Shown here piece by piece: positions 49 to 51,174 of a DNA stretch of 64,000 nucleotides (within the stretch, counting starts at the first letter, position 1; each line of letters opens with the position of its first letter). Under the pieces are notes generated by a model. It made no database searches. It saw only the letters and a program-made list of their open reading frames with translations, and had not been told where the DNA came from. The DNA comes from an uncultured Acidobacteriota bacterium (GTDB lineage: Bacteria > Acidobacteriota > Vicinamibacteria > Vicinamibacterales > 2-12-FULL-66-21). The stretch is taken from contig CAWCQI010000027.1 of the NCBI GenBank assembly GCA_963797625.1, forward strand, positions 192,774-256,773, read 5' to 3'. The position numbers were made by a program, and so were the translations under genes.

Positions 49-1416
49 ATGGCGCTTCCGCCCGTCTTCGCGGCCAGCGCGCTCTACGACAGCCTCCTGC
101 AGTCGGCGCTGCGGCAGTTCTTCGGGCGCGCCACGTTCGAGACCGAGCCGATCCCGTCGCTGTCGTCGGACGGGCGGCTGGCGATCGAGCCAACCAACGA
201 TCCGTCAGTGTTGTCGATCCGGTGGTTTGGTTCCCGCCATGTGCTGCACGTGCCGGCCCGCCGACCCTTCACGCCGCATGAAGTGCGGCTCGCGAAGGCG
301 ATCGGCAGCGTGCTGGCGTTGCGCTATCGCGCGATCTTCGACCCCAAGCAGATGCTCGAGCGCGGCGATCTCTTTCGCGGGGCGATCGAAGACCGCTACG
401 TCAGCGCGTTTCTGAACGCGCAGGAACAGCACGAGGCCGCGCATGCGCGCGCCGATCTCGTCGCCAACGCGCTCGAAATCCTCCGTGTGGCCGCGCTCTC
501 GAGCTACGAGAACAAGGCGATCTCGACCGGCGTGCTGCTCGTGGATCACGACGACGGCCGTCATTCCATGGGCGCGACGGCTCTCGCCGGACTGTCCTAC
601 AAGTATTCTCCGGCGTTGACCGGTATCAAGAGCTTCTACCGCCTCAGTGATGGTCTCGAGACGCTCTTCCTCGTCAATCGCGACGGCACGGTGCTCGACA
701 TCGTCGAGATCGCGCGGTATGTGTCCTCGGCGAGCCGCACTGGTCCGGTGATCCTCGACGTCGCGTGCCCGACCGCCTACCGCGCGCACGCGACCGCGAC
801 CGGCAGCAACCAGAGTATCTGCCTGGTGCTCAGCCCCTCGCACGAGATCAAGGTGTTTGCGCAAGGCGTTGAGGTCTTCAGCTTCCGGAACGCGCGCTGG
901 CACCTCCTCGACGTGCAGGCGAAATACGAGATGTGGGAACGCGCGATCGGGGACGCCGGGCTCGCCAGCCGCTTGTTTCAGACGGCGCTCGATTTGGCTG
1001 ACGCGCGACAGGGCGCGCTGTTCGTCGTCCTGCGCGATGCGGCGGCGTCCTTGCCGATGCTCGTGGCGCCTGGCGATCGCCTCGACGCGCCGCGCGGAAA
1101 GCCGGGCGACGCGCCCGACCGCGTCCAGCTGCTCCACATGCTGCGCGGCCGCAGCGCCGTGAATCTCGACCCCGCCGTGCTGGCTGGCCTTGCCAAGACT
1201 GACGGCGCGACGGTCATGGACGGCACGGGGCGGCTTCTCGCCGTCGGCGCGATTCTGATGCACTCCGAACCGGTCGAACCGCACTCGATGCTTGCCGTCG
1301 AAGGCGCCCGCACCACTGCCGCGATGGCAGCGGGTCGCTACGCCGCTGTCCTCAAGGTCAGCGAAGATGGTCTGATCACCTTCTACGATCGGCAGGAGAA
1401 GATCTGGGACATCTGA
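49..1416 (+). CDS. DisA_N / diadenylate-cyclase-like domain protein (divergent; RHR motif not conserved)
   Basis: 455-aa ORF with strong GC3 bias; overlapping antisense ORFs rejected. The C-terminal ~150 aa show the three DAC blocks by eye (ARQGALFVVL; TDGATVMDGTGRLLAVGAIL; EGARTTAAMAA..AVLKVSEDGLITFY), but the catalytic RHR reads RTT. Confidence 0.45.
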   Translation: MALPPVFAASALYDSLLQSALRQFFGRATFETEPIPSLSSDGRLAIEPTNDPSVLSIRWFGSRHVLHVPARRPFTPHEVRLAKAIGSVLALRYRAIFDPKQMLERGDLFRGAIEDRYVSAFLNAQEQHEAAHARADLVANALEILRVAALSSYENKAISTGVLLVDHDDGRHSMGATALAGLSYKYSPALTGIKSFYRLSDGLETLFLVNRDGTVLDIVEIARYVSSASRTGPVILDVACPTAYRAHATATGSNQSICLVLSPSHEIKVFAQGVEVFSFRNARWHLLDVQAKYEMWERAIGDAGLASRLFQTALDLADARQGALFVVLRDAAASLPMLVAPGDRLDAPRGKPGDAPDRVQLLHMLRGRSAVNLDPAVLAGLAKTDGATVMDGTGRLLAVGAILMHSEPVEPHSMLAVEGARTTAAMAAGRYAAVLKVSEDGLITFYDRQEKIWDI

Positions 1417-1421
1417 AGAAA

Positions 1422-1450
1422 TGCTGAATGCTGAGTGCTGAATGCTGAAT
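1422..1450 (+). repeat. four tandem TGCTGAR heptamers directly after the stop codon
   Basis: tgctgaa tgctgag tgctgaa tgctgaa begins 6 nt after TGA 1414-1416. The same string forms the left arm of the palindrome at 12261-12342. Confidence 0.85.
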
Positions 1451-1506
1451 TGGGAAGAGTGAAGTAAGATTCAGGCTCTTTCGACGAGCGGGGTGCTGCG
1501 AGCCTT

Positions 1507-2404
1507 ATGCGAGTCCTTCTGACGGGGGGCACGGGGTACATCGGATCGGCGGTTCTCGACGCGCTGGTTCGCGCCGGTCACCAGGTCGAGGCGCTCGTCC
1601 GCAATCGTGAAAAGGCGGCCGCGGTGCAGGCGCGCGGCGGCCATCCGGTGCTCGGCGACCTCTCGCGGCCCGAGACCTACGCGGGCGTGGCGGCGGCAGC
1701 CGATGGCGTGATTCACGCCGCGCTCGACGATGCGTCCCGCGGGCATGCGCTCGACGCCTTGGCGCTCGACACGCTGCTGTCGCCGTGCACGCGCCAAACG
1801 ATTCTTCATCTACACATCGGGCGTGTGGGTCCTTGGCCCGGCCCCGACGCCGGTGGACGAGACTGTTGCGGTCAATCCAGTCGAGCAGTCCGCCTGGCGC
1901 GTGCCGCATGAACAACGTGTGCTGGCCGCCGCGGGGCCGAACCTCCGCACTCTCGTCGTCCGCCCCGGCATCGTCTACGGCGGCTGCCGCGGGATTGTCG
2001 GCGATATGTTCAAGTCGGCCGCAAACGGCCTCGTCCGGGTGATTGGCACGGGCGAGAATCACTGGCCGCTCGTCTACGACCGGGATCTCGGTGAGTTGTA
2101 CGTGCTGCTGGCCACCAACCCGACCGCGTCGGGTGTTTTCCATGCCAACGACGAATGTGATGAGCGCGTCAACGACCTCGTCGCCGCGATTACCGGTCAC
2201 GTGTCGATTAGTCCGAGCATCCGCAAGGTCCCTCTGACGGAAGCCAGGAAGAAAATGGGTGTCTACGCGGACGCGCTGGCGCTCGATCAGATCGTGCGGT
2301 CCACTCGCGCGCGCGAGCTCGGCTGGGCGCCGTCGCTGCACGCCGTGTCAAGGAACGCCGCGCGTTTGTTCGAAGAGTGGCGGAACGGCCGCGAGGCGGC
2401 ATGA
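1507..2404 (+). CDS. NAD-dependent epimerase/dehydratase (extended SDR); +1 frameshift near 1785
   Basis: Rossmann N-terminus MRVLLTGGTGYIGSAV lies in frame 1. The conserved body (RFFIYTSGVWVLGP..VVRPGIVYG) continues in frame 2 (ORF 1730-2404). One extra base joins the two frames. Confidence 0.75.
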
Positions 2405-3147: not shown

Positions 3148-4524
3148 TTACGACTGAGCCTGCATGTCGTCGACGATACGTCGGGCCAGCGTCAGCCCCT
3201 CGTCGAGCGTTTGCAGGCGCCCGTCCAGTTGCAGTTCGTACAAGCGTCGGAGGATTTCGCCCATTCGTGGTCCTGGTTCGACACCGAGATCGAGCAGATG
3301 GCGGCCGAGGACGATCGGCGCCGGGGGGCGATGTTCGACGCCGAGCGCGCGCGCCCGGTCGAGAAAGTGCTCGATCGCCGAGCAGTCGAACGCTCCCGTC
3401 CGTCCGCGGCAGTCCGACATGGCCACGCGCGCGAGCAGCTCGAGGTCCACTTTCTCCGCAAGGCGGCGGTAGGCACCGTCACCGACCGGGGTTGCCGACT
3501 TGGAGAATGCGTGCGGCTTCAGGTGGTGCGCGACAATCCCTTTGACCTGGCGAGCAACGTCGTAGCCGCCGATCGTCTGGACGTTCAGGCGGGCGAGGAA
3601 CGCGTCCGCCGGAGCCACTCCGGCCTGCTCGTGGTCCATCGACCGGATGCGGCCGTCGATGAAGGCCGTCGTGAGGGGCTTACCGAAATCGTGACACACG
3701 GCGCCAAGCATGACGGTCAACTGCTGCGGGCGATCGAGGTCGGCAATCCGGCGGCGGGCCTCGTCGATGACGAGCAGCGTGTGCACCCAGACGTCTCCCT
3801 CTGGATGCCACTCCGGTTCCTGTGGACAGTCGACGAGCGTCCTCAACTCTGGAAACAACCGATCGATCACGCCGAGCTCGAGCGCGAGCGCGAAACCGAT
3901 CGACGGCCGTTCGGCGAGGAGCAGCAGCTTCTCGACCTCGCCCCAGACGCGTTCGGCGGGAAGATCGTCCAGCGGAATGCGTTCACAGAGCGCCTTCGTG
4001 CCCGGATCCATCTCGAGCTCGAAACGCGCGGCAAACTGAATCCCGCGCAGCACGCGCAGGCTGTCGTCACCAAAGGTTCGCGCGTCGACGGCACGGAGCA
4101 CGCGGCGCTCGAGCAGGTCACGACGGCCATGATACGGATCGAGGTAGGTGTCCTCGAGTGGGTCCCATGCGATGGCATTGACGGTGAAGTCCCGCCGCCG
4201 CGCCGCTTCTTCCGGCGGCAGGTTCGGATCGCCCGTGACCTCGAACCCGCGGTGTCCGCGGCCGGTCTTCGATTCCCGGCGCGGCAGCGACACGTCGACG
4301 TCGAGCACCTTGTAGACGGTGAAGCTCTCGCCGACGGTATTGACGGGGCCGAGCGTTTCGAGCAGCGCCTTCAGCTGCGGCGCCGCCAGGCCGTAGACCT
4401 CGACGTCGACATCTTTGCCGGTTCGGCCGAGGAGCCGATCGCGCACCCAGCCACCGACCACCAGCGCGCGCCCGCCGTGCTGCCTCACGAGATCGGCGAT
4501 GGTCGTTGCCGCCTCGATGCTCAT
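3148..4524 (-). CDS. cca: CCA-adding tRNA nucleotidyltransferase / poly(A) polymerase family with HD domain
   Basis: GGWVRDRLLG..DVDVEV head motif, RRDFTVNA, HD motif VCHDFGKP. Start chosen at MSIEAATT (ATG 4524), which forms an ATGA overlap with the upstream SDR stop. Upstream part of the 513-aa ORF rejected. Confidence 0.75.
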   Translation of the reverse strand: MSIEAATTIADLVRQHGGRALVVGGWVRDRLLGRTGKDVDVEVYGLAAPQLKALLETLGPVNTVGESFTVYKVLDVDVSLPRRESKTGRGHRGFEVTGDPNLPPEEAARRRDFTVNAIAWDPLEDTYLDPYHGRRDLLERRVLRAVDARTFGDDSLRVLRGIQFAARFELEMDPGTKALCERIPLDDLPAERVWGEVEKLLLLAERPSIGFALALELGVIDRLFPELRTLVDCPQEPEWHPEGDVWVHTLLVIDEARRRIADLDRPQQLTVMLGAVCHDFGKPLTTAFIDGRIRSMDHEQAGVAPADAFLARLNVQTIGGYDVARQVKGIVAHHLKPHAFSKSATPVGDGAYRRLAEKVDLELLARVAMSDCRGRTGAFDCSAIEHFLDRARALGVEHRPPAPIVLGRHLLDLGVEPGPRMGEILRRLYELQLDGRLQTLDEGLTLARRIVDDMQAQS

Positions 4525-5352
4525 CGCGCGCGCGATCGCGAAGGATCCGGTGCGGCGGGCTCGACAACGCGACGCCGGCCGTACTTCCGCACCAGCCGAT
4601 CGGTAAATGCCGGCGCGAGCGAATTCAGGATCGCGAGCCCTCGCGACAGGCGATGCGGATACACCTCTGCCGCCGGCCGCCGGATGCATTGCACGATCGC
4701 GCGGGCGACGTCCTCGACCGGCTGCTTGGGTCCAAGCCCAGACACCTGGTGGCCAAAGTCCCGCTCCATCGCTTCCCGGAATTCGGTCGTCGTCGACACT
4801 GGAAAGACCGCGCTGACGTGAATGTCAGTACCGGAGAATTCTGACCGCAGCGACTCCGCGAAGACCGCCTGCGCGGCCTTCGTCGCGCTGTAGCCGCTCA
4901 TCAACGGGATGCCGCGCTTGCCGACGATCGACGAGACAAAAATCAGGTGGCCGTGCCCTTGCCGGCGGAAGACCGGCAGCGCGGCGCGCGTGCCGTAGAA
5001 CGTTCCCATGAAATTGACGTCCATCATCCGTTCCATCACGCCGCTGTCCATCTCGTCGACGCTGCCGTAGTAGCCGAAGCCGGCGTTGCAGACCATGATG
5101 TCCAGCCGGCCGAACGCCTCCTGAGCGCGCGTGACCAGTCGCACGACATCTGCTTCCTTCGTCACGTCCATGATCACCGACTCGGCGCGGCCCCCGCCAG
5201 CACGGATCCGCTGCACGGCGAGCTCGAGCCGATCGCCTCGCCGCGCGCCGAGCACGACTGACACGCCTTCGTGCGCGAGATGTTCGGCGACAGCGAGCCC
5301 GATCCCTGAGAGACGCTCCGGTGATCGCCGCGACCGTTCCGTTCAAGTCCAT
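4521..5352 (-). CDS. short-chain dehydrogenase/reductase; +1 frameshift at ~5310
   Basis: MDLNGTVAAITGAS (ORF 4825-5352) joins GIGLAVAEHLAHEGVSVVLGA (ORF 4521-5264). Deleting one base restores the classic TGASSGIG. NAG and YSATK catalytic motifs present. Confidence 0.8.
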
Positions 5353-10167: not shown

Positions 10168-11025
10168 ATGGCTGACCGCTCAGAAGCCCAGCACCGCGCC
10201 GACATCGTCGAAGTCGGTCGCCGTCTTTATGCGCGCGGCTACACCGCCTCGAACGACGGCAACATCAGCCTCCGGCTCGACGCGTCGCGGCTGCTGATGA
10301 CGCCGACCAACGTCTGCAAGGGGTTCATGACCGTCGAGATGATGTGCATCACCGATCTCGACGGGAAGAAGATTGCCGGCGAGCGCAATCCGTCCTCCGA
10401 AATGCAGATGCACCTCGAGGTCTACCGCCAACGTCCCGAAATCCAGGCGGTGGTCCACGCACACCCGCCCATCGCCACCGGCTTCGCGGTCGCCGGTATC
10501 CCGCTCGATCGCGCGGTGCTTGCCGAGGTCGTCACCACGCTCGGGAGCGTGCCGATCGCCGAGTACGCGACGCCCTCGACCCGCGAGCTGCCTGAGGCCG
10601 TGCGCAAGTACGTCAAGGCGCACGATGGCATGCTCCTCGCCAACCACGGCGCGCTGACGCTCGGCGCCGACGTGTTCTCGGCCTACTACAAGATGGAGAC
10701 GATCGAGCACTTCGCCAAGATCAGTCTGGTGGCGCGAATGCTCGGCGGCGAGCGCCTGCTGTCGCGCGAGGAGGTCGCGCGGCTCGAGAAATTGCGCGGC
10801 TCCTACGGGATCGCCGCGCCCGCGCCGATCTGTCCCGAGCCCTCCGCCGCTGACCCGCTCGATTGCCAGGTGGTTCAGGCGCCATCGTCGACGCCAGGCG
10901 AGCGACTGGTTCCCCGGTCGCCCTCGGTGCGGCCGGGATCCGGCGTAGGCCCTGATGAGGAAATTCGGCTAACATACAGCGAGTTGACGGCGCTCATCGA
11001 GGACGCCGTACGAAGTCTCAAGTAG
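10168..11025 (+). CDS. class II aldolase/adducin-family enzyme (FucA/RhaD-like) with C-terminal encapsulation-peptide-like helix
   Basis: Zn/catalytic residues present (SSEMQMH, VVHAHPP, LLANHGALTLG). A ~55-aa Pro/Ser-rich linker follows, then the terminal amphipathic helix LTYSELTALIEDAVRSLK. Confidence 0.8.
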   Translation: MADRSEAQHRADIVEVGRRLYARGYTASNDGNISLRLDASRLLMTPTNVCKGFMTVEMMCITDLDGKKIAGERNPSSEMQMHLEVYRQRPEIQAVVHAHPPIATGFAVAGIPLDRAVLAEVVTTLGSVPIAEYATPSTRELPEAVRKYVKAHDGMLLANHGALTLGADVFSAYYKMETIEHFAKISLVARMLGGERLLSREEVARLEKLRGSYGIAAPAPICPEPSAADPLDCQVVQAPSSTPGERLVPRSPSVRPGSGVGPDEEIRLTYSELTALIEDAVRSLK

Positions 11026-11139
11026 CTATCAGCCATCAGCTGTCAGCTCTCAGCTCTCAGCTGGCGACAGTCGGACGACAAGACAGAATCACTAACAGCG
11101 GCGAGCTGACAGCTGAGAGCTGATAGCTGAGAGCTTTTT
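11024..11139 (+). terminator. long imperfect hairpin of AGCTNTC 7-mers followed by a T5 tract (terminator/attenuator-like) inside the BMC operon
   Basis: Left arm 11024-11063 and right arm 11104-11135 pair at about 28 of 32 positions. The loop is ~40 nt. ttttt at 11135-11139 lies just before the BMC-H RBS ggagg. Confidence 0.5.
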
Positions 11140-11997: not shown

Positions 11998-12277
11998 ATG
12001 CAAATCGCGCGTGTGGTCGGTACCGTGGTCTCCACGCAGAAGAACCGGAAGCTGGAGGGCGCCAAGCTGCTGCTCGTCCAGCCGCTGTCGATCGATGATG
12101 CACCGCGCGGCGTCCCGCTCATCGCGATCGATTCGGTGGGCGCCGGCATCGGCGAAAAGGTGCTGGTGGTGATCGAGGGCAAGGCCGCCGGGCGACGCGC
12201 TCGGCAAGAAAGCCGCCGCGGTCGATGCCGCGATCATCGGGATCATCGATACAATTACTTGCAATGCTGAATGCTGA
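11998..12277 (+). CDS. BMC-P vertex protein (EutN/CcmL family), paralogue 3; +1 frameshift at ~12190-12193
   Basis: MQIARVVGTVVSTQKNRKLEGAKLLLVQP..IAIDSVGAGIGEKVLVVIEGKAAG, then frame 2 gives DALGKKAAAVDAAIIGIIDTITCNAEC. The extra base lies in a ggg run. The stop codon sits inside the repeat at 12261-12342. Confidence 0.8.
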
Positions 12278-12342
12278 GTGCTGAATGTAAATGATGAATT
12301 CAGCATTTACTTCAGCATTCAGCATTCAGCACTCAGCATTGC
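12261..12342. repeat. 82-nt near-perfect palindrome of GCTGAAT/GCTGAGT heptamers centred on gaattc
   Basis: The arm gcaatgctgaatgctgagtgctgaatg matches the reverse complement of cattcagcattcagcactcagcattgc with 2 mismatches in 27. Lies between BMC-P3 and the small Cys protein. Confidence 0.85.
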
Positions 12343-12354
12343 AAGGATCAGCAT

Positions 12355-28842: not shown

Positions 28843-29103
28843 ATGGCCACCTGTCCCGAATGTGATGCCGAAATCGAGATCGACGAATTCGACGTCGACA
28901 AGGGCGACCTGATTAGTTGCCCCGAGTGCGGCTCCAATCTCGAAGTGACCACCACTTCTCCGGTCGAGCTCGAAGCAGTCGATGAAGACGACGACGACGA
29001 CGATGACGACGAGGACGACGACGAAGTGGAGGATGACGACGCCGAACTCGACGACGAAGATGACGTAGACGACGACGCGAACGGGGAGGACTGGGAAGAG
29101 TGA
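28843..29103 (+). CDS. LysW-like zinc-ribbon amino-group-carrier-type protein with an unusually long poly-Asp/Glu tail
   Basis: MATCPECDAEIEIDEFDVDKGDLISCPECGSNLEVTTTSPVELEAV, then ~40 acidic residues ending GEDWEE (compare the LysW terminus EDWGE). Confidence 0.6.
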   Translation: MATCPECDAEIEIDEFDVDKGDLISCPECGSNLEVTTTSPVELEAVDEDDDDDDDDEDDDEVEDDDAELDDEDDVDDDANGEDWEE

Positions 29104-29994: not shown

Positions 29995-32255
29995 TTGGCG
30001 CGCATTCTCGTTGGCCTGATCGCGGTTGTGTCGTTCGCGGCGCACCTGACCGCGCTCCCCCCCACGCTCGAAGATTCCGACTCGGTCAATTTCGCGTTGG
30101 GCGTGCGCCATTTCGACGTCGCCCAGCATCAACCCCACCCGCCCGGTTACCCGATCTTCATCGCTCTCGGAAAGCTCGGTACGTCCGCGCTCACCCGGGC
30201 CGGCATCGCGAGCCCGGATGTGCGCGGCCTCGCAATCTGGAGCGCCTTCGCCGCTGGCGCGCTGCCATTTTTCTTTTTTGCGTTCTTCCGGCGGCTCGGC
30301 GGAGACGTTCCAGGCGAAAGTGGCGATCGACGCGCTGCAATCGCGACCCTGCTCATCGTCTGCAATCCGCTCTTCTGGTTCACCGCGACGCGGCCCCTGT
30401 CGGACATGGCCGGTCTCGCCGCAGCCTGGGCTGCGCTCGCCGCCCTGGGGTCAGGTCTCGATCTTCTCCCCCGAGTAGAAAATCGAGATCTGACCCCGCG
30501 GTGGTTGGTGGTCGGAGCGTTTCTCGCGGGGCTGTCGATCGGGTTCCGGTCGCAGATGGCGATTCTGACGATGCCGCTGCTTGTCTGGGTGGTCCTGACG
30601 CGTCCGCGCGTCAGGATGGCGGCCATCGCGGCTGCCATCGCCGGTGTCATCGCGTGGGTCAGTGCCGCTCATCTGGTTCAGCGGCGGCCCGCGTCGATAT
30701 ATTGCGGCGCTCGGCAGTCAGGCTGGCGAGGACTTTTCCGGCGTCGAGATGCTGTGGACGCATCCGACGCCGCGTGCCATCGTGACCGCCGTCCTCCAGA
30801 CCTTCGTTCGCCCATGGGACTCGCCGACGCTCGCTGGCATCATGCTGGCCTTCGCCGCCGCCGGCATCGTCGTCCTCCTGCGGCGTTCTCCGCGGGTGCT
30901 GGCCATCCTCGTGATGACCTTCGGCCCCTATGCCGTGTTCCATCTGCTCTTCCAGGACACGCCGGCCATTCGTTACGCGTTGCCGCTCGTCCCCCTCGTG
31001 GCGTATCTCGCGGCGGTCGTGACTGACTGAAGCCGACTCACGTGTTGGCGGCATCGTGGCGTCCGGGTTGGCCGTCGCTAGTCTCACTTTCGTGGTGCCC
31101 GCTGCTGCGGCTTTTGGCAAGACGCCAAATCCGACGTTCGCTCTACTTTCCGAAATGCGCCTGGTCCAGGACCGCGGCGCCAGGCCCGTCGTCGGCATGC
31201 ACCGTCGTGTGTTTACCGAATCGAAGCGCGCCCGGCTCTATGCCGGTGATGTTCCGGGCAGGCTGCTGCCGGCGCCTCGGGACTACGAGTGGCTCGAACT
31301 GACTCGCGCGTGGCGCGAGGGTCACGACGGCGAGACGTGGTTTGTCGCCGATCCGCGCCGGACCGACCTTGCATTGATCGATCGTGACCACGCCAGGACC
31401 CGCCAATATCGCTGGCCCTTCAACGCCGCCGTTTACGTCGGCGGCGCCAGGCCAGACGAACTCGACTGGCATGTCGTGACCGAGCCGGGATGGTTTCTCG
31501 AGCAGGGCTGGGCGCTGACACCTGAGACGGCTGGGATCGCCGAACGGGACGGGTGGGGGCCGCACCGCAAACCGAGCATCGGCTGGGTGCGCCGTCGCTC
31601 CACGGAATTGCTGATGATGATTGGCGGCCGCCACCTTGGCGGCGATCCGCCGGTCAACCTTCACGTGAATCTGGACGAGCGTCCAGTCACGACGCTGGTG
31701 ATACGTCCGGGTTATTTCCTCGATTTTGTGAACGTTCCCCCGGCGGCGCTGGCGGGCGAGGGCAGATACGCGAAGTTGACGGTGAGCGCGACGGTGCAGG
31801 GCGGCGGCGCAGTTCCACCGGTCGCGATCGAGCAGTTCAACCTCCAGCCGCCCGACCGGGTGCAATACGGCTTCGACCAGGGGTGGTACGAGCCGGAATA
31901 CAACCCGCGAACCGGTCGATCGTGGCGCTGGATGAGCGAGCGGGCCGTCGTCAGGGTGCATCCCGCAGGCAAGGCAGTCGTGCTTCGACTCGCCGGCGAG
32001 TCGCCGCTTCGCTACTTCGACGAGCCGCCGCGAATCACGATCAACGTCGGCGACCGTGTGGTCGCCGAGCTGACGCCGGCCGCGGACTTCACCGCCGAGG
32101 TATCGATCCCCGTCGACGCCCTCACAGGGGCCGACGGCCGGATCGTGCTCACCTCGGACCGCAGCTTCGTTGCGGGTGAGAAAGAGGGCACCGCCGACCG
32201 GCGCAAGCTGGCGATCCGCGTGTATTCGCTGAGCGTCGAGGCGGGGAGTCGCTAG
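29995..32255 (+). CDS. DUF2723/TMEM260-like polytopic membrane glycosyltransferase-family protein with large C-terminal domain; two +1 frameshifts (~30660, ~31026)
   Basis: TTG start 2 nt after the LarE-like stop. HPPGYPIF motif and many TM helices. Frames 1, 2 and 0 join as ..IAGVIAW|VPLIWFSGGPRRYIAALG.. and ..AYLAAVVT|EADSRVGGIVASGLAVASL.. Confidence 0.55.
30447..30497. repeat. intragenic hairpin element with GGGGTCAG..CTGACCCC termini
   Basis: ggggtcaggtctcgat (19 nt) atcgagatctgacccc pairs at 15 of 16 positions. Translated in frame as GSGLDLLPRVENRDLTPR. Confidence 0.7.
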
Positions 32256-37950: not shown

Positions 37951-37960
37951 AACGAACAGG

Positions 37961-38175
37961 ACAGTCGGCAGTCGGCGGTCGTCAGTCGGCAGTCGCAGTC
38001 GTTAGTCTGAGTCGGCAGTCGCAGTCCTCAGTCGCAGTCCTCAGTCCAAGTCGTCAGTCGCAACGGGTCGACTTGGACTGTCGACTCGAACTCGACTAGG
38101 ACTGTCGAGTTGGACTGACTGACTCAGACTGAAGACTGTGACTGCCGACTGACGACCGCCGACTGACGACTGTCG
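37961..38175. repeat. ~215-nt imperfect palindrome built from CAGTCG/GACTG units, upstream of the pyrR operon
   Basis: The outer ~45-55 nt of the arms pair with only about 3 mismatches (gtcggcggtcgtcagtcggcagtc.cagtc.t.agtctgagtc). Inner stem cagtccaagtc/gacttggactg with a 16-nt apical loop at 38054-38069. Confidence 0.8.
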
Positions 38176-38322
38176 TGTTACACTACTGCAGCTCTTTAAG
38201 TGCGTCCCTGTGAGGCCGCCAAGAGGTGCCACGTTGAATACTCCGTCCACGCCTTCAACTTTCCGCTCGGTCTCTGCACGATTCCGCTCCACGCCTTTCC
38301 GGATCTGCCGACAGAGGTCCAG

Positions 38323-41821: not shown

Positions 41822-41921
41822 GCTCATGGCTCATGGCTCAAGGCTCAGGGCTCAGGCAAGACCTCGGAACAGTCGCTCGAAGATCTTGCTTGCCTTGAGC
41901 CTTGAGCCTGAGCCATGAGCC
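41821..41921. repeat. 101-nt hairpin with arms of GGCTCAN heptamers
   Basis: Left arm ggctcat ggctcat ggctcaa ggctcag ggctcag gcaag; loop ~24 nt; right arm cttgcttgccttgagccttgagcctgagccatgagcc. The right arm contains ATG 41915. Confidence 0.8.
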
Positions 41922-42794
41922 CTGCAGCCATCCCTCGCCTCCTCACTCGACGCGCTCTATCGCGACTACAACCGCGAAGAATCGGCGAGCGATCCCGTCC
42001 ACCGCGTGCGGCCGTTCTCGGACTCTCGCGATCGGGAAGTGGCGGGCTTCTGCGCGGCGGCGCTCGCCTTCGGTCGGGTCGCGAGTGTGCTGAACACGAT
42101 CGACACCTTGTTCGCGATTCTGGGTCCTCGGCCGGCAGAATACGTCAGGCGGTTCGATCCGGCCGGCAGTCATCCTGAACTGCGAGCGATGGTCCATCGA
42201 TGGACCCGAGGCGTGGACATCGCCGCCCTCCTCTGGCTGTTGCGGCAGATGCTCGAGCGGTCCGGGTCGATCGAGGCCTTTTTCCTCGAAGGCGATTCCG
42301 AAGCAACCCCTGATGTCGGTGCGGCGCTCGACAGTTTCTCGACGAGGGCGCTCGCGCTCGACATCCGGCGAGCCTACGGCCGCGTGCCGAAGCGTCCGGG
42401 GGTGTGCTATTTCTTTCCGCGTCCCTCAGCGGGCAGCGCCTGCAAGCGTCTGAACCTGTTCCTCCGCTGGATGGTGCGCCGCGACGCGGTCGACCTGGGC
42501 GTCTGGACGCGACTCTCGCCAGCGCGACTCGTCGTCCCGCTCGACACGCACGTGATCCGGCTGGGCCGCTGCCTGAGGCTGACGCGGTACGTCAGTCCTG
42601 GCTGGCGGATGGCATCCGACATCACTCACTCACTCCGTGACCTCGACGCGACGGATCCCGTCCGGTTCGATTATTCGATCTGTCACGTCGGCATGATGAA
42701 CGCCTGCGGCTTCGGCCGGAAGCAGGGAGACTCGCAATGTCCGCTCAAAGGGCTATGCCATCCACGACCGCGTCGCGCGCGACGTTCCGGCTGA
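41915..42794 (+). CDS. TIGR02757/DUF2400 family protein; 5' end uncertain (possible +1 indel ~41930)
   Basis: SLDALYRDYNREESASDPVHRVRPF..FCAAALAFGRV..CYFFP..LNLFLRWMVR..VPLDTHV..CHVGMMNACGF. ATG 41915 lies one frame back from the conserved body. Confidence 0.6.
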
Positions 42795-50390: not shown

Positions 50391-51174
50391 GTGAGCCAGC
50401 GCACTCTGAGGCTGACGGTCGAATACGACGGCACGAACTACGTTGGCTGGCAGCGTCAGGCCGAAGGCGTATCGATTCAGGGACTGCTCGAGGAGGCGCT
50501 GCAGCCTTTCGAGGGCGAGCCGCTGACGGTGCACGGCGCGGGCCGAACCGATGCCGGAGTCCACGCCCTGGCCCAGGTGGCCAGCGTCCGGACGCGTACC
50601 CTTCATGATGTCCGCACGCTGCGCCGCGCGTTGAACGCAGTGCTCCCCACCGACGTGCGCGTCGTTTCTGTCGAAGACGCGCCTCCCGAGTTTCATGCGC
50701 GCTTCGATGCGGTCTCGAAGACCTACGCCTATCGGATAGCCAACGCTCCGGTCGTCTCGGCTTTCGAGCATCGCTTTGTCTGGCACGTCCCGGGCGCGCT
50801 CAACGTCGAGGCGATGCATCAGGGCGCGCAGGCGCTTCTCGGCCGTCATGACTTCGCGGCATTCCAGTCCAGCCGGCGGGGACGTCCACACCACGGAGCG
50901 CACGATCCTGTCGATTGCCGTGGAGCCAGAGCGGGGTCAGACCGGGGTCAGACCATGGTCTGACCCCGGTCTGACCCCGCTCGTCATTCGCGTGACCGGC
51001 GACGGCTTTCTGCGGCACATGGTCCGCTCGATCGCGGGCACGCTCGTTGACGTCGGCCTCGGCCGATGGCAACCGAGCGAGGTCGGCAGGATTCTGGCGG
51101 GCCGGGATCGCTCGCGCGCGGGCCGCGCCGCCCCGGCCTCGGGACTCTTTCTCGTCCGCGTCGACTATGTGTAG
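50391..51174 (+). CDS. truA: tRNA pseudouridine(38-40) synthase; +1 frameshift ~50873; carries an in-frame 54-nt palindrome
   Basis: LTVEYDGTNYVGWQRQ, GAGRTDAGVHA. ..HDFAAFQSS|GGDVHTTERTILSI..GDGFLRHMVR joins ORFs 50391-50963 and 50776-51174. Confidence 0.85.
50929..50982. repeat. perfect 54-nt palindrome, (GGGGTCAGACC)x2 arms, in codon register inside truA
   Basis: gagcggggtcagaccggggtcagacca|tggtctgaccccggtctgaccccgctc. Encodes ERGQTGVRPWSDPGLTPL on both strands; the same peptide appears in minus ORF 50800-51498. Confidence 0.9.

Follow-up and report, generated by a model that had tools for sequence, protein, structure and literature searches.

A hairpin translated in frame within a TMEM260-like gene of an uncultured Acidobacteriota bacterium is probably a short non-autonomous repeat with TIRtron ends

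In-frame insertions of palindromic repeats in bacterial genes have been reviewed (PMC10969869). The tRNA pseudouridine synthase gene truB is a host of such an element in Rickettsia, and REPs, too, have occasionally been seen within genes, even sharing one site between species, as in recB of two related Xanthomonas (PMC3733652). TIRYTs are RAYT-like tyrosine transposases of the IS200/IS605 kind, and their genes are flanked by terminal inverted repeats (TIRs) which share the motif GGGGWSAS; some of these repeats are self-complementary and make up families of moderate abundance, known from S. maltophilia and Koribacter, and Acidobacteria have a TIRYT group of their own (PMC3733652). The same proteins were classified as TnpA_REP subclass 2.1, which was present in 14.9% of strains with a patchy distribution over phyla and near whose genes no REP-like sequences were found (PMC6006769), and as RAYT group 1, the largest group, which spans 21 classes including Clostridia and whose flanking 16-mers are only modestly repeated (PMC5581495). 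In this study, we analysed a 64-kb stretch of contig CAWCQI010000027.1 from an uncultured soil Acidobacteriota bacterium of the Vicinamibacterales (the whole stretch is called the window below). It contains a hairpin inside a gene for a TMEM260-like (DUF2723) membrane glycosyltransferase and a sister element inside truA, and the hairpin is probably a short non-autonomous palindromic repeat with TIRtron (TIRYT) ends. The element is inserted in frame, its relatives are dispersed to other loci, and its terminal motif flanks Y1 transposase genes in other bacteria (features are collected in Table 1). An earlier note, made from the letters of the stretch alone, had taken the two elements for members of one family resembling MITEs (miniature transposable elements with inverted repeats) that had landed in frame in coding sequence, and this reading turned out to be essentially right.

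Our analysis confirmed that the hairpin (GGGGTCAGGTCTCGATCTTCTCCCCCGAGTAGAAAATCGAGATCTGACCCC) is real and lies far beyond chance. Its terminal motif GGGGTCAG, which fits GGGGWSAS exactly, stands at 30447-30454 and the complement CTGACCCC at 30490-30497, so that GGGGWSAS stands at both ends in inverted orientation; the arms form 19 Watson-Crick pairs, the remaining two positions being a G·T and a C·A. The earlier note had seen the pairing correctly but not its extent, giving arms complementary at 15 of 16 positions around a 19-nt spacer where the arms are really 21 nt long and the loop 9 nt. The RNA fold of the hairpin reached -43.1 kcal/mol against -20.0 +/- 2.9 for shuffled sequences (z = -8.1), and none of 200 shuffles was as good. 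The pattern GGGGTCAG-N(10-40)-CTGACCCC matched two sites only in the window, 30447-30497 and 50933-50978 in truA, and was absent from all 100 dinucleotide-preserving shuffles of the window; the same match confirmed that the hairpin and the truA palindrome end in the same octamers, as had been noticed. The octamer GGGGTCAG itself occurred nine times in the window, where 2.2 were expected, and six of the nine lay inside the two elements. A DNA-uptake sequence was dropped as an explanation, these octamers being too sparse. No T-run follows the stem of the hairpin at 30447-30497, and an intrinsic terminator was dropped on this ground and because the element lies inside an open reading frame (ORF). 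Neither the window nor 16 loci bearing the motif had an Rfam match at the gathering threshold, and around the hairpin only chance-level miRNA matches appeared. Strings of the element sequence searched in the literature matched only unrelated eukaryotic and viral primers, and a 41-aa concatenate for the translated element yielded no candidate host proteins in the protein database.

Homologues of the host gene are about 750 aa long and annotated as DUF2723 proteins of Vicinamibacterales. The element is translated in frame as GSGLDLLPRVENRDLTP, and the earlier translation ...ALGSGLDLLPRVENRDLTPRW... was correct. It lies in a loop with the motif RPLSD on one side and GFRSQM on the other; when the 120 best homologues were aligned, this loop was hypervariable in length. 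We extracted this loop between RPLSD and G(F/I)RSQ from 81 loci. It measured 55 aa in the window and in L001 (a stretch, syntenic with the window at 95% identity, from a 1.2-Mb contig of a metagenome-assembled genome, MAG), whereas in the 72 distant orthologues from which it was extracted (37-62% identity) it was mostly 40-48 aa with a mode of 44, a minority having longer loops of other sequence. The distant loop is thus about 11 aa shorter and without the element, indicating that the element is an insertion, in agreement with what had been proposed. All orthologues at 72-96% amino acid identity carry GSDLDF...ENRDLTP-like peptides, the translations of both arms, and at the DNA level an element occupies the identical codon position in eight of eight syntenic orthologues. 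In the close orthologues (the window, L001, L202-L208 and L003) each such element begins with (T)GGGGTCAGATCT and ends with AGATCTGACCCC. Judging from this sharing down to about 72% identity, the TMEM260-like copy is an old insertion, not a recent landing. Over nine type A copies (the subfamily of this hairpin), 92.5% of stem cells were paired; L208 has matched changes in the two arms (TCTCGAT>TCTTGAT and ATCGAGA>ATCAAGA), and in L202 an arm is partly duplicated internally.

The sister element in truA belongs to a different subfamily, type C, which is built of 11-mers. Its in-frame translation, ERGQTGVRPWSDPGLTPL, falls in a beta-turn at which E. coli TruA (1DJ0) is 13 residues shorter than the TruA of the window; with the additional 11 aa of the TMEM260-like loop, both elements are in frame inside coding sequence, as the earlier note had held. 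A 98.4%-identical truA has GAGC-GGGGTCTGACCCC-GCTC at this site and is 33 nt shorter, exactly three 11-mer units relative to a solo 13-mer palindrome, and from this comparison the presence/absence difference is taken as a recent polymorphism. The truA of L209, another Vicinamibacterales genome, encodes a protein with 72% aa identity to the window TruA and contains the type A element GGGGTCAGATCTCGGTTTTCTAACCGGTCTAGAAAATCGAGATCTGACCCC, while the TMEM260-like copy of L001 is GGGGTCAGATCTCGGTTTTCTCGCCCGACTAGAAAATCGAGATCTGACCCC; the arms of these two copies are identical including the asymmetric G·T, and the 7-nt loop differs. We further surveyed the TruA turn before VIRVTGDGFLRHMVR in the query and 120 homologues. 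Type C or 13-mer forms, reading GSDRGQTGVRPGSDQGQTP with one to three units, were found in 53; type A occurred in 2, type B (..VFQH..NVEIQDLTP) in 2 and heptamer-coded peptides in 7, while the other 57 showed no signature of these kinds. In many TruA orthologues (P0121, P0129, P0140, P0144) the right-arm units read GSDQGQTP, with TCAGAC in place of the inverted TCTGAC; these units have the central A/T of GGTCWGACC flipped, which removes the TGA stop of the inverted unit in one frame and may be a trace of open-frame selection on the repeat.

A third location was provided by an Acidobacteriota MAG (L153), in which type A arms GGGTCAGATCTCGATTTTC ... GAAAATCGAGATCTGACCCC stand between two long ORFs at 4556-4628, a locus that is neither TMEM260-like nor truA, with a 13-mer GGGGTCAGACCCC nested in the loop. 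Identical type A arms therefore occur across genomes of the clade in the TMEM260-like gene (L001), in truA (L209) and in intergenic DNA (L153). The presence of a near-identical 51-nt element in unrelated genes, and of its arms between genes, shows that the element is dispersed and no local accident. The subfamilies found at the TMEM260-like and TruA loops, each in different lineages, all end in GGGGTCAG...CTGACCCC. The TMEM260-like loop held type A, type B in L207, type C in L205 and heptamer-coded variants in P0029 and P0030, and types A, B, C/13-mer and heptamer-coded each occupy both this loop and the TruA turn. L011, a 44%-identical orthologue, has two copies of a 24-nt palindrome GGGGTCAGACCCGGGTCTGACCCC in its TMEM260-like loop. 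The eight element lengths measured (51, 51, 63, 51, 72, 72, 51 and 24 nt) are all multiples of three, a point that the earlier note had proposed to check in intragenic copies, and in type A two of three frames are stop-free on either strand.

The core GGGGTCWGACCCC is itself palindromic, and a scan with one genome per species for GGGGTCAGAYC-N(2-32)-GRTCTGACCCC returned at least 120 loci. The matches came from Proteobacteria (Stenotrophomonas, Massilia, Janthinobacterium, Rugamonas, Marinobacter, Halomonas) and from Actinomycetota, Planctomycetota, Gemmatimonadaceae, Lachnospiraceae, Acidobacteriota and others. Two or more copies were present in several of these loci, and pairing often continued past the motif. 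Among 138 cross-phylum hairpins listed, about three quarters lay outside long ORFs with high GC content at third codon positions, by a crude method. The proposal of one family defined by its termini is supported by the same ends in the window pair, in the related subfamilies and in these loci of many phyla. That the window elements are two members of one family holds for their shared ends, but their interiors represent different subfamilies, and the further copies that had been anticipated were found in related genomes and not in the rest of the 64 kb.

The termini also connect the element with transposase genes. We used TIRYT sequences from the supplement of the published TIRYT paper as tblastn queries. 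In a Burkholderiales MAG (L180) the Y1_Tnp gene is bounded by inverted AATCGGGGTCAGACCAC(C/G)TTTT, and a matching 40-nt hairpin with arms GGGGTCAGACCCCATTTTC lies at 3540-3579, 1.8 kb away. The search against plasmids gave 33 records, of which seven were inspected over 400 nt on each side. The TIRYT gene of the R. rubrum plasmid is flanked by inverted TTAAAAGGGGTCAGACCCC (GGGGTCAGACCCC ends), that of the Iodobacter plasmid by inverted ATAACTGGGGTCAGAGCAAA (GGGGTCAGAGCAAA ends) and that of the Sporomusa plasmid by inverted GGGGTCAGGCCT. Inverted GGGGTCAG repeats thus surround Y1-transposase genes in four genomes, and the wide phylum spread of the hairpins matches that of RAYT group 1. A pair of hairpins 900 nt apart in L085 was rejected as a further case, the gene between them encoding a secreted protein and not a transposase.

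The target sites bear on the kind of transposition. The earlier note had suggested a test for target-site duplications, and none was present at three copies, the left and right flanks being CCCT and GCGG (TMEM260-like), GAGC and GCTC (truA) and GTGT and GGTC (L209); the truA flanks are an inverted, not a direct, repeat. Its description of the ends as MITE-like TIRs therefore stands as far as they are ends of a mobile unit, since they flank Y1 genes, but not in the sense of a classical DDE-type MITE, for which a target-site duplication would be expected; the lack of one fits HUH/Y1 (RAYT-like) transposition. Neither of the window elements has a GTAG or CGTC tag next to it. A CGTC does stand 3 nt behind the truA copy, but it belongs to L-V-I codons and has no counterpart at the TMEM260-like copy.

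If the hairpin has TIRtron ends, it would be a minimal TIRtron derivative consisting of two ends plus a loop. In single-stranded DNA the arms would fold into a hairpin, and a TIRYT encoded elsewhere in the genome would cut at the hairpin foot and move or copy the element without target duplication. Most landings would fall between genes, and intragenic copies would survive only in places where the protein tolerates the added residues, with a length divisible by three and a stop-free frame. An ancestor of the Vicinamibacterales clade would have gained the copy in the TMEM260-like loop, which would have been inherited since, with drift in the loop and near-complementarity kept in the arms. A solo GGGGTCWGACCCC or a resident copy may then act as a landing or exchange site, with the result that the same loop would carry different subfamilies depending on the lineage. 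We infer both the mobilisation by a TIRYT in this organism and the landing-pad step. The reoccupation of the same two loops, the nesting in L153 and L205, and the solo 13-mer at the near-identical truA suggest that resident copies attract new ones or exchange with them. Copies are probably also reshaped locally, by slippage or arm-templated correction, as seen in the 11-mer units and the L202 duplication. A bolder extension, which we consider doubtful, is that the GGGGTCAG-ended hairpins are the missing dispersed REPIN-like population of RAYT group 1/TIRYT, the most widespread RAYT group, that a solo GGGGTCWGACCCC or a resident hairpin is a reusable landing or exchange site, and that in Vicinamibacterales the TMEM260-like and TruA loops have been repeatedly rewritten by different subfamilies. 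If true, this would amount to a site-specific cassette exchange which yields protein-length variation.

Several observations weigh against a mobile repeat of TIRYT origin. No transposition event was observed directly, and tblastn found no Y1 or TIRYT gene in the 64-kb window or in the Acidobacteriota loci examined; a regular-expression search for RAYT motifs in all loci was likewise negative, and a viral-contig scan covering 30 loci found no TIRYT. The plasmid TIRYT genes of Pseudoalteromonas, Paraburkholderia and Burkholderia M701 have no GGGGTCAG TIR within 400 nt, and that of Skermanella has two tandem GGGGTCAG copies on one side only. The density is low, with two elements in 64 kb and no further copies in about 20 kb of syntenic flank of eight related loci. 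With a shared motif only 8-13 nt long, the GGGGTCAG hairpins of different phyla may not all be homologous. In the stem, the nine type A copies showed two pairs with double changes, a number reached by 132 of 500 shuffles. The stem is maintained, but covariation is no better than plain conservation, so that selection on structure is not demonstrable.

The signs of reshaping lead to a different account, in which template switching, or quasi-palindrome correction and slippage, made the hairpin on the spot in a length-tolerant loop; it was then never mobile and owes its shared termini to coincidence or mutational bias. The hypervariable loop length, the L202 arm duplication, and the truA palindrome of tandem 11-mers standing three units (33 nt) from the solo 13-mer in a 98.4%-identical gene would agree with such an origin, and the matched changes in the two arms of L208 are also expected from arm-to-arm templated correction. 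However, the same 51-nt sequence, its asymmetric arms identical, is found in two genomes within genes unrelated to each other and in a third genome between genes, and the end motif of 8-13 nt also flanks transposase genes. Local processes probably do reshape resident copies but leave the dispersal unexplained, and we regard local origin as improbable. Slightly less probable again is a functional cis-element of the gene, with an mRNA or DNA structure under selection, for example as a translation pause between transmembrane segments, an RNase site or an internal attenuator. Its very stable structure, the same codon position in all orthologues at 72-96% identity, the pairing of 92.5% of stem cells and the one-sided stem changes, which gave G·U on the sense strand in 12 cases and C·A in 6, would suit this role, but that bias is not significant, nor is the covariation, and neither a T-run after the stem nor an Rfam match was found. 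Moreover, the same elements stand in the cytosolic TruA and between genes, many orthologues do without one, and subfamilies replace one another at the site. A cis-regulatory role may exist as a secondary effect.

Tn3-family inverted repeats begin with GGGGTCTGAC, and TIRs starting with GGGG on a small non-coding element present at several sites could also indicate a classical MITE from a DDE transposon. This we consider very unlikely: no copy has a target-site duplication, and the genes between GGGGTCAG repeats encode Y1 (IS200-like) transposases, not DDE enzymes. Furthermore, 24-51 nt is too short for two 38-bp Tn3-type repeats, and a Tn3-derived element was dropped for this shortness and the lack of duplications. 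Least credible of all is an assembly artefact in the form of a palindromic chimera of long reads. The window does contain many single-base insertions relative to a 95%-identical genome, and related MAGs of the same project kind have fragmented genes, but the element stands at the same position in independent JGI and ENA assemblies, both short-read and long-read, and is translated in database proteins with up to 34 member sequences.

Table 1. Features of the window and of the Burkholderiales TIRtron used for comparison
Feature	Sequence	Position	Strand	Remarks
Host gene, TMEM260-like/DUF2723 membrane glycosyltransferase	window	29995..32255	+	~752 aa; PF11028, E 1.2e-11
Type A hairpin element GGGGTCAGGTCTCGATCTTCTCCCCCGAGTAGAAAATCGAGATCTGACCCC	window	30447-30497		51 nt
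Left arm GGGGTCAGGTCTCGATCTTCT	window	30447..30467	+	starts with terminal motif GGGGTCAG; read G-S-G-L-D-L-L
Loop CCCCCGAGT	window	30468..30476	+	9 nt; most variable part between orthologues and between copies
Right arm AGAAAATCGAGATCTGACCCC	window	30477..30497	+	finishes in CTGACCCC; read (V)ENRDLTP
truA (tRNA pseudouridine38-40 synthase)	window	50391..51174	+	host of sister element
Sister element, type C	window	50929..50982	+	perfect 54-nt palindrome, GAGC (GGGGTCAGACC)x2 AT (GGTCTGACCCC)x2 GCTC
Single-base insertions	window	27572, 33021, 33259, 33264, 36676, 37347, 38986, 41130		vs 95-98%-identical L001, L210
Intergenic heptamer hairpins	window	11024-11135, 12258-12345, 37960-38180, 41825-41924		tandem heptamers and inverted copies
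TIRtron	L180 (Burkholderiales MAG)	1016-1778		
Y1_Tnp gene of TIRtron	L180 (Burkholderiales MAG)	1039-1722	-	PF01797, E 2.5e-13

With L001 as reference, the host gene of the window is split over three frames: an extra T at 30659 and an extra A at 31022, both downstream of the hairpin, cause this. truA has a 1-nt insertion, G at 50872, and more such insertions are spread over coding regions across 22 kb. They do not lie in homopolymers and probably shift the frame of other genes too. The insertions look like long-read assembly errors unrelated to the hairpin, and ORF calls in the window therefore have to be used with care. Upstream of the TMEM260-like gene, an 86-aa ORF (28843-29103) contains two CPEC motifs followed by a long Asp/Glu run and has no Pfam match on record; its position is conserved in all syntenic loci. 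The intergenic heptamer hairpins, with the units (CAGCTNT)n, (TGCTGAA)n, (CAGTCGN)n and (GGCTCAN)n, form a class distinct from the GGGGTCAG elements, and those at 38.0 kb and 41.9 kb are indel-rich hot spots relative to L001. Translations of this class, REPRTAS and DSGIGDQGS...DPRSLISD, appear in the same TMEM260-like and TruA loops of other lineages. In the viral contig IMGVR_UViG_3300025917_000462 (L219), a 27-nt hairpin GGGGTCAGACCCGCAGGGTCTGACCCC stands at gene ends (2301-2327 and 3593-3619), and one of the two supplies the portal C-terminus ...GSDPAGLTPGE*; an identical hairpin occurs in about a dozen small viral contigs. By eye from translations, this contig is a head module (terminase, portal, protease, HK97 capsid) resembling an alphaproteobacterial gene transfer agent or prophage, and a single-stranded DNA virus was rejected on the same basis. 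A stretch of 8 kb from S. maltophilia (L168) has a RAYT gene (Y1_Tnp) with arrays of another palindrome, GTGCCGACCAACGGTCGGCAC, on both sides (400-1330), a classical REPtron, and also a GGGGTCAGATCCC hairpin, which means that two repeat systems coexist there.

The value of the locus for work on TIRYTs lies in the fact that RAYT group 1/TIRYT has no well-described population of cargo elements. It supplies a family defined by sequence, with the ends GGGGTCAG(A)(C/T)C, together with natural presence/absence variants and two loops reoccupied by subfamilies. These allow tests of TIRYT mobility, of attraction by old copies and of the tolerance of the glycosyltransferase and of TruA to insertions. 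For the annotation of Acidobacteriota MAGs, peptides such as GSDLDF...ENRDLTP and GVRPGSDP are to be read as translated repeats, not as conserved protein motifs. In-frame palindromic repeats (RPEs, REPs in genes) and TIR repeats ending in GGGGWSAS are already known. We found no description of the Vicinamibacterales family, of its translated subfamilies or of loops in TMEM260-like proteins and TruA being used repeatedly, nor of the breadth of GGGGTCAG-ended hairpins over phyla as candidate cargo of group 1 RAYTs.

Compared with known systems, the element shares with classical MITEs (Correia, ERIC, Nezha) TIRs, small size, a non-autonomous nature and sometimes an intragenic position, but those derive from DDE insertion sequences and have target-site duplications, of which there are none here. 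The Rickettsia palindromic elements (RPEs) are likewise mobile palindromes inserted in frame at surface loops of unrelated housekeeping genes whose proteins are kept. However, they are about 100-150 bp long, A+T-rich, restricted to Rickettsia and have no known transposase, whereas the present elements have 24-72 nt, are G+C-rich and end like TIRYT genes. The two are not known to resemble each other in sequence, though no search aimed at this was made. REPs and REPINs of RAYT groups 2 and 3 are similar: these palindromes are short and G+C-rich, fold into hairpins when the DNA is single-stranded, are non-autonomous, depend on a single-copy Y1 gene and persist vertically. They differ in having a GTAG/CGTC tag and an architecture of 5' tag plus hairpin where here the termini are conserved, and in density, the hundreds of copies typical of REPINs being far above what we observed. 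TIRtron TIR repeats are likewise similar in their GGGGWSAS ends, some of them self-complementary, in their wide spread including Acidobacteria and in the absence of target-site duplications, and the flanking of a gene was reproduced in four genomes. Their cognate gene was not found here, in the 64-kb window and the Acidobacteriota loci examined. The published repeats flank the transposase gene or are intergenic (Stenotrophomonas, Koribacter), whereas here a 51-nt hairpin is translated in housekeeping genes and the repeats fall into several subfamilies, including one whose arms are made of tandem 11-mers.

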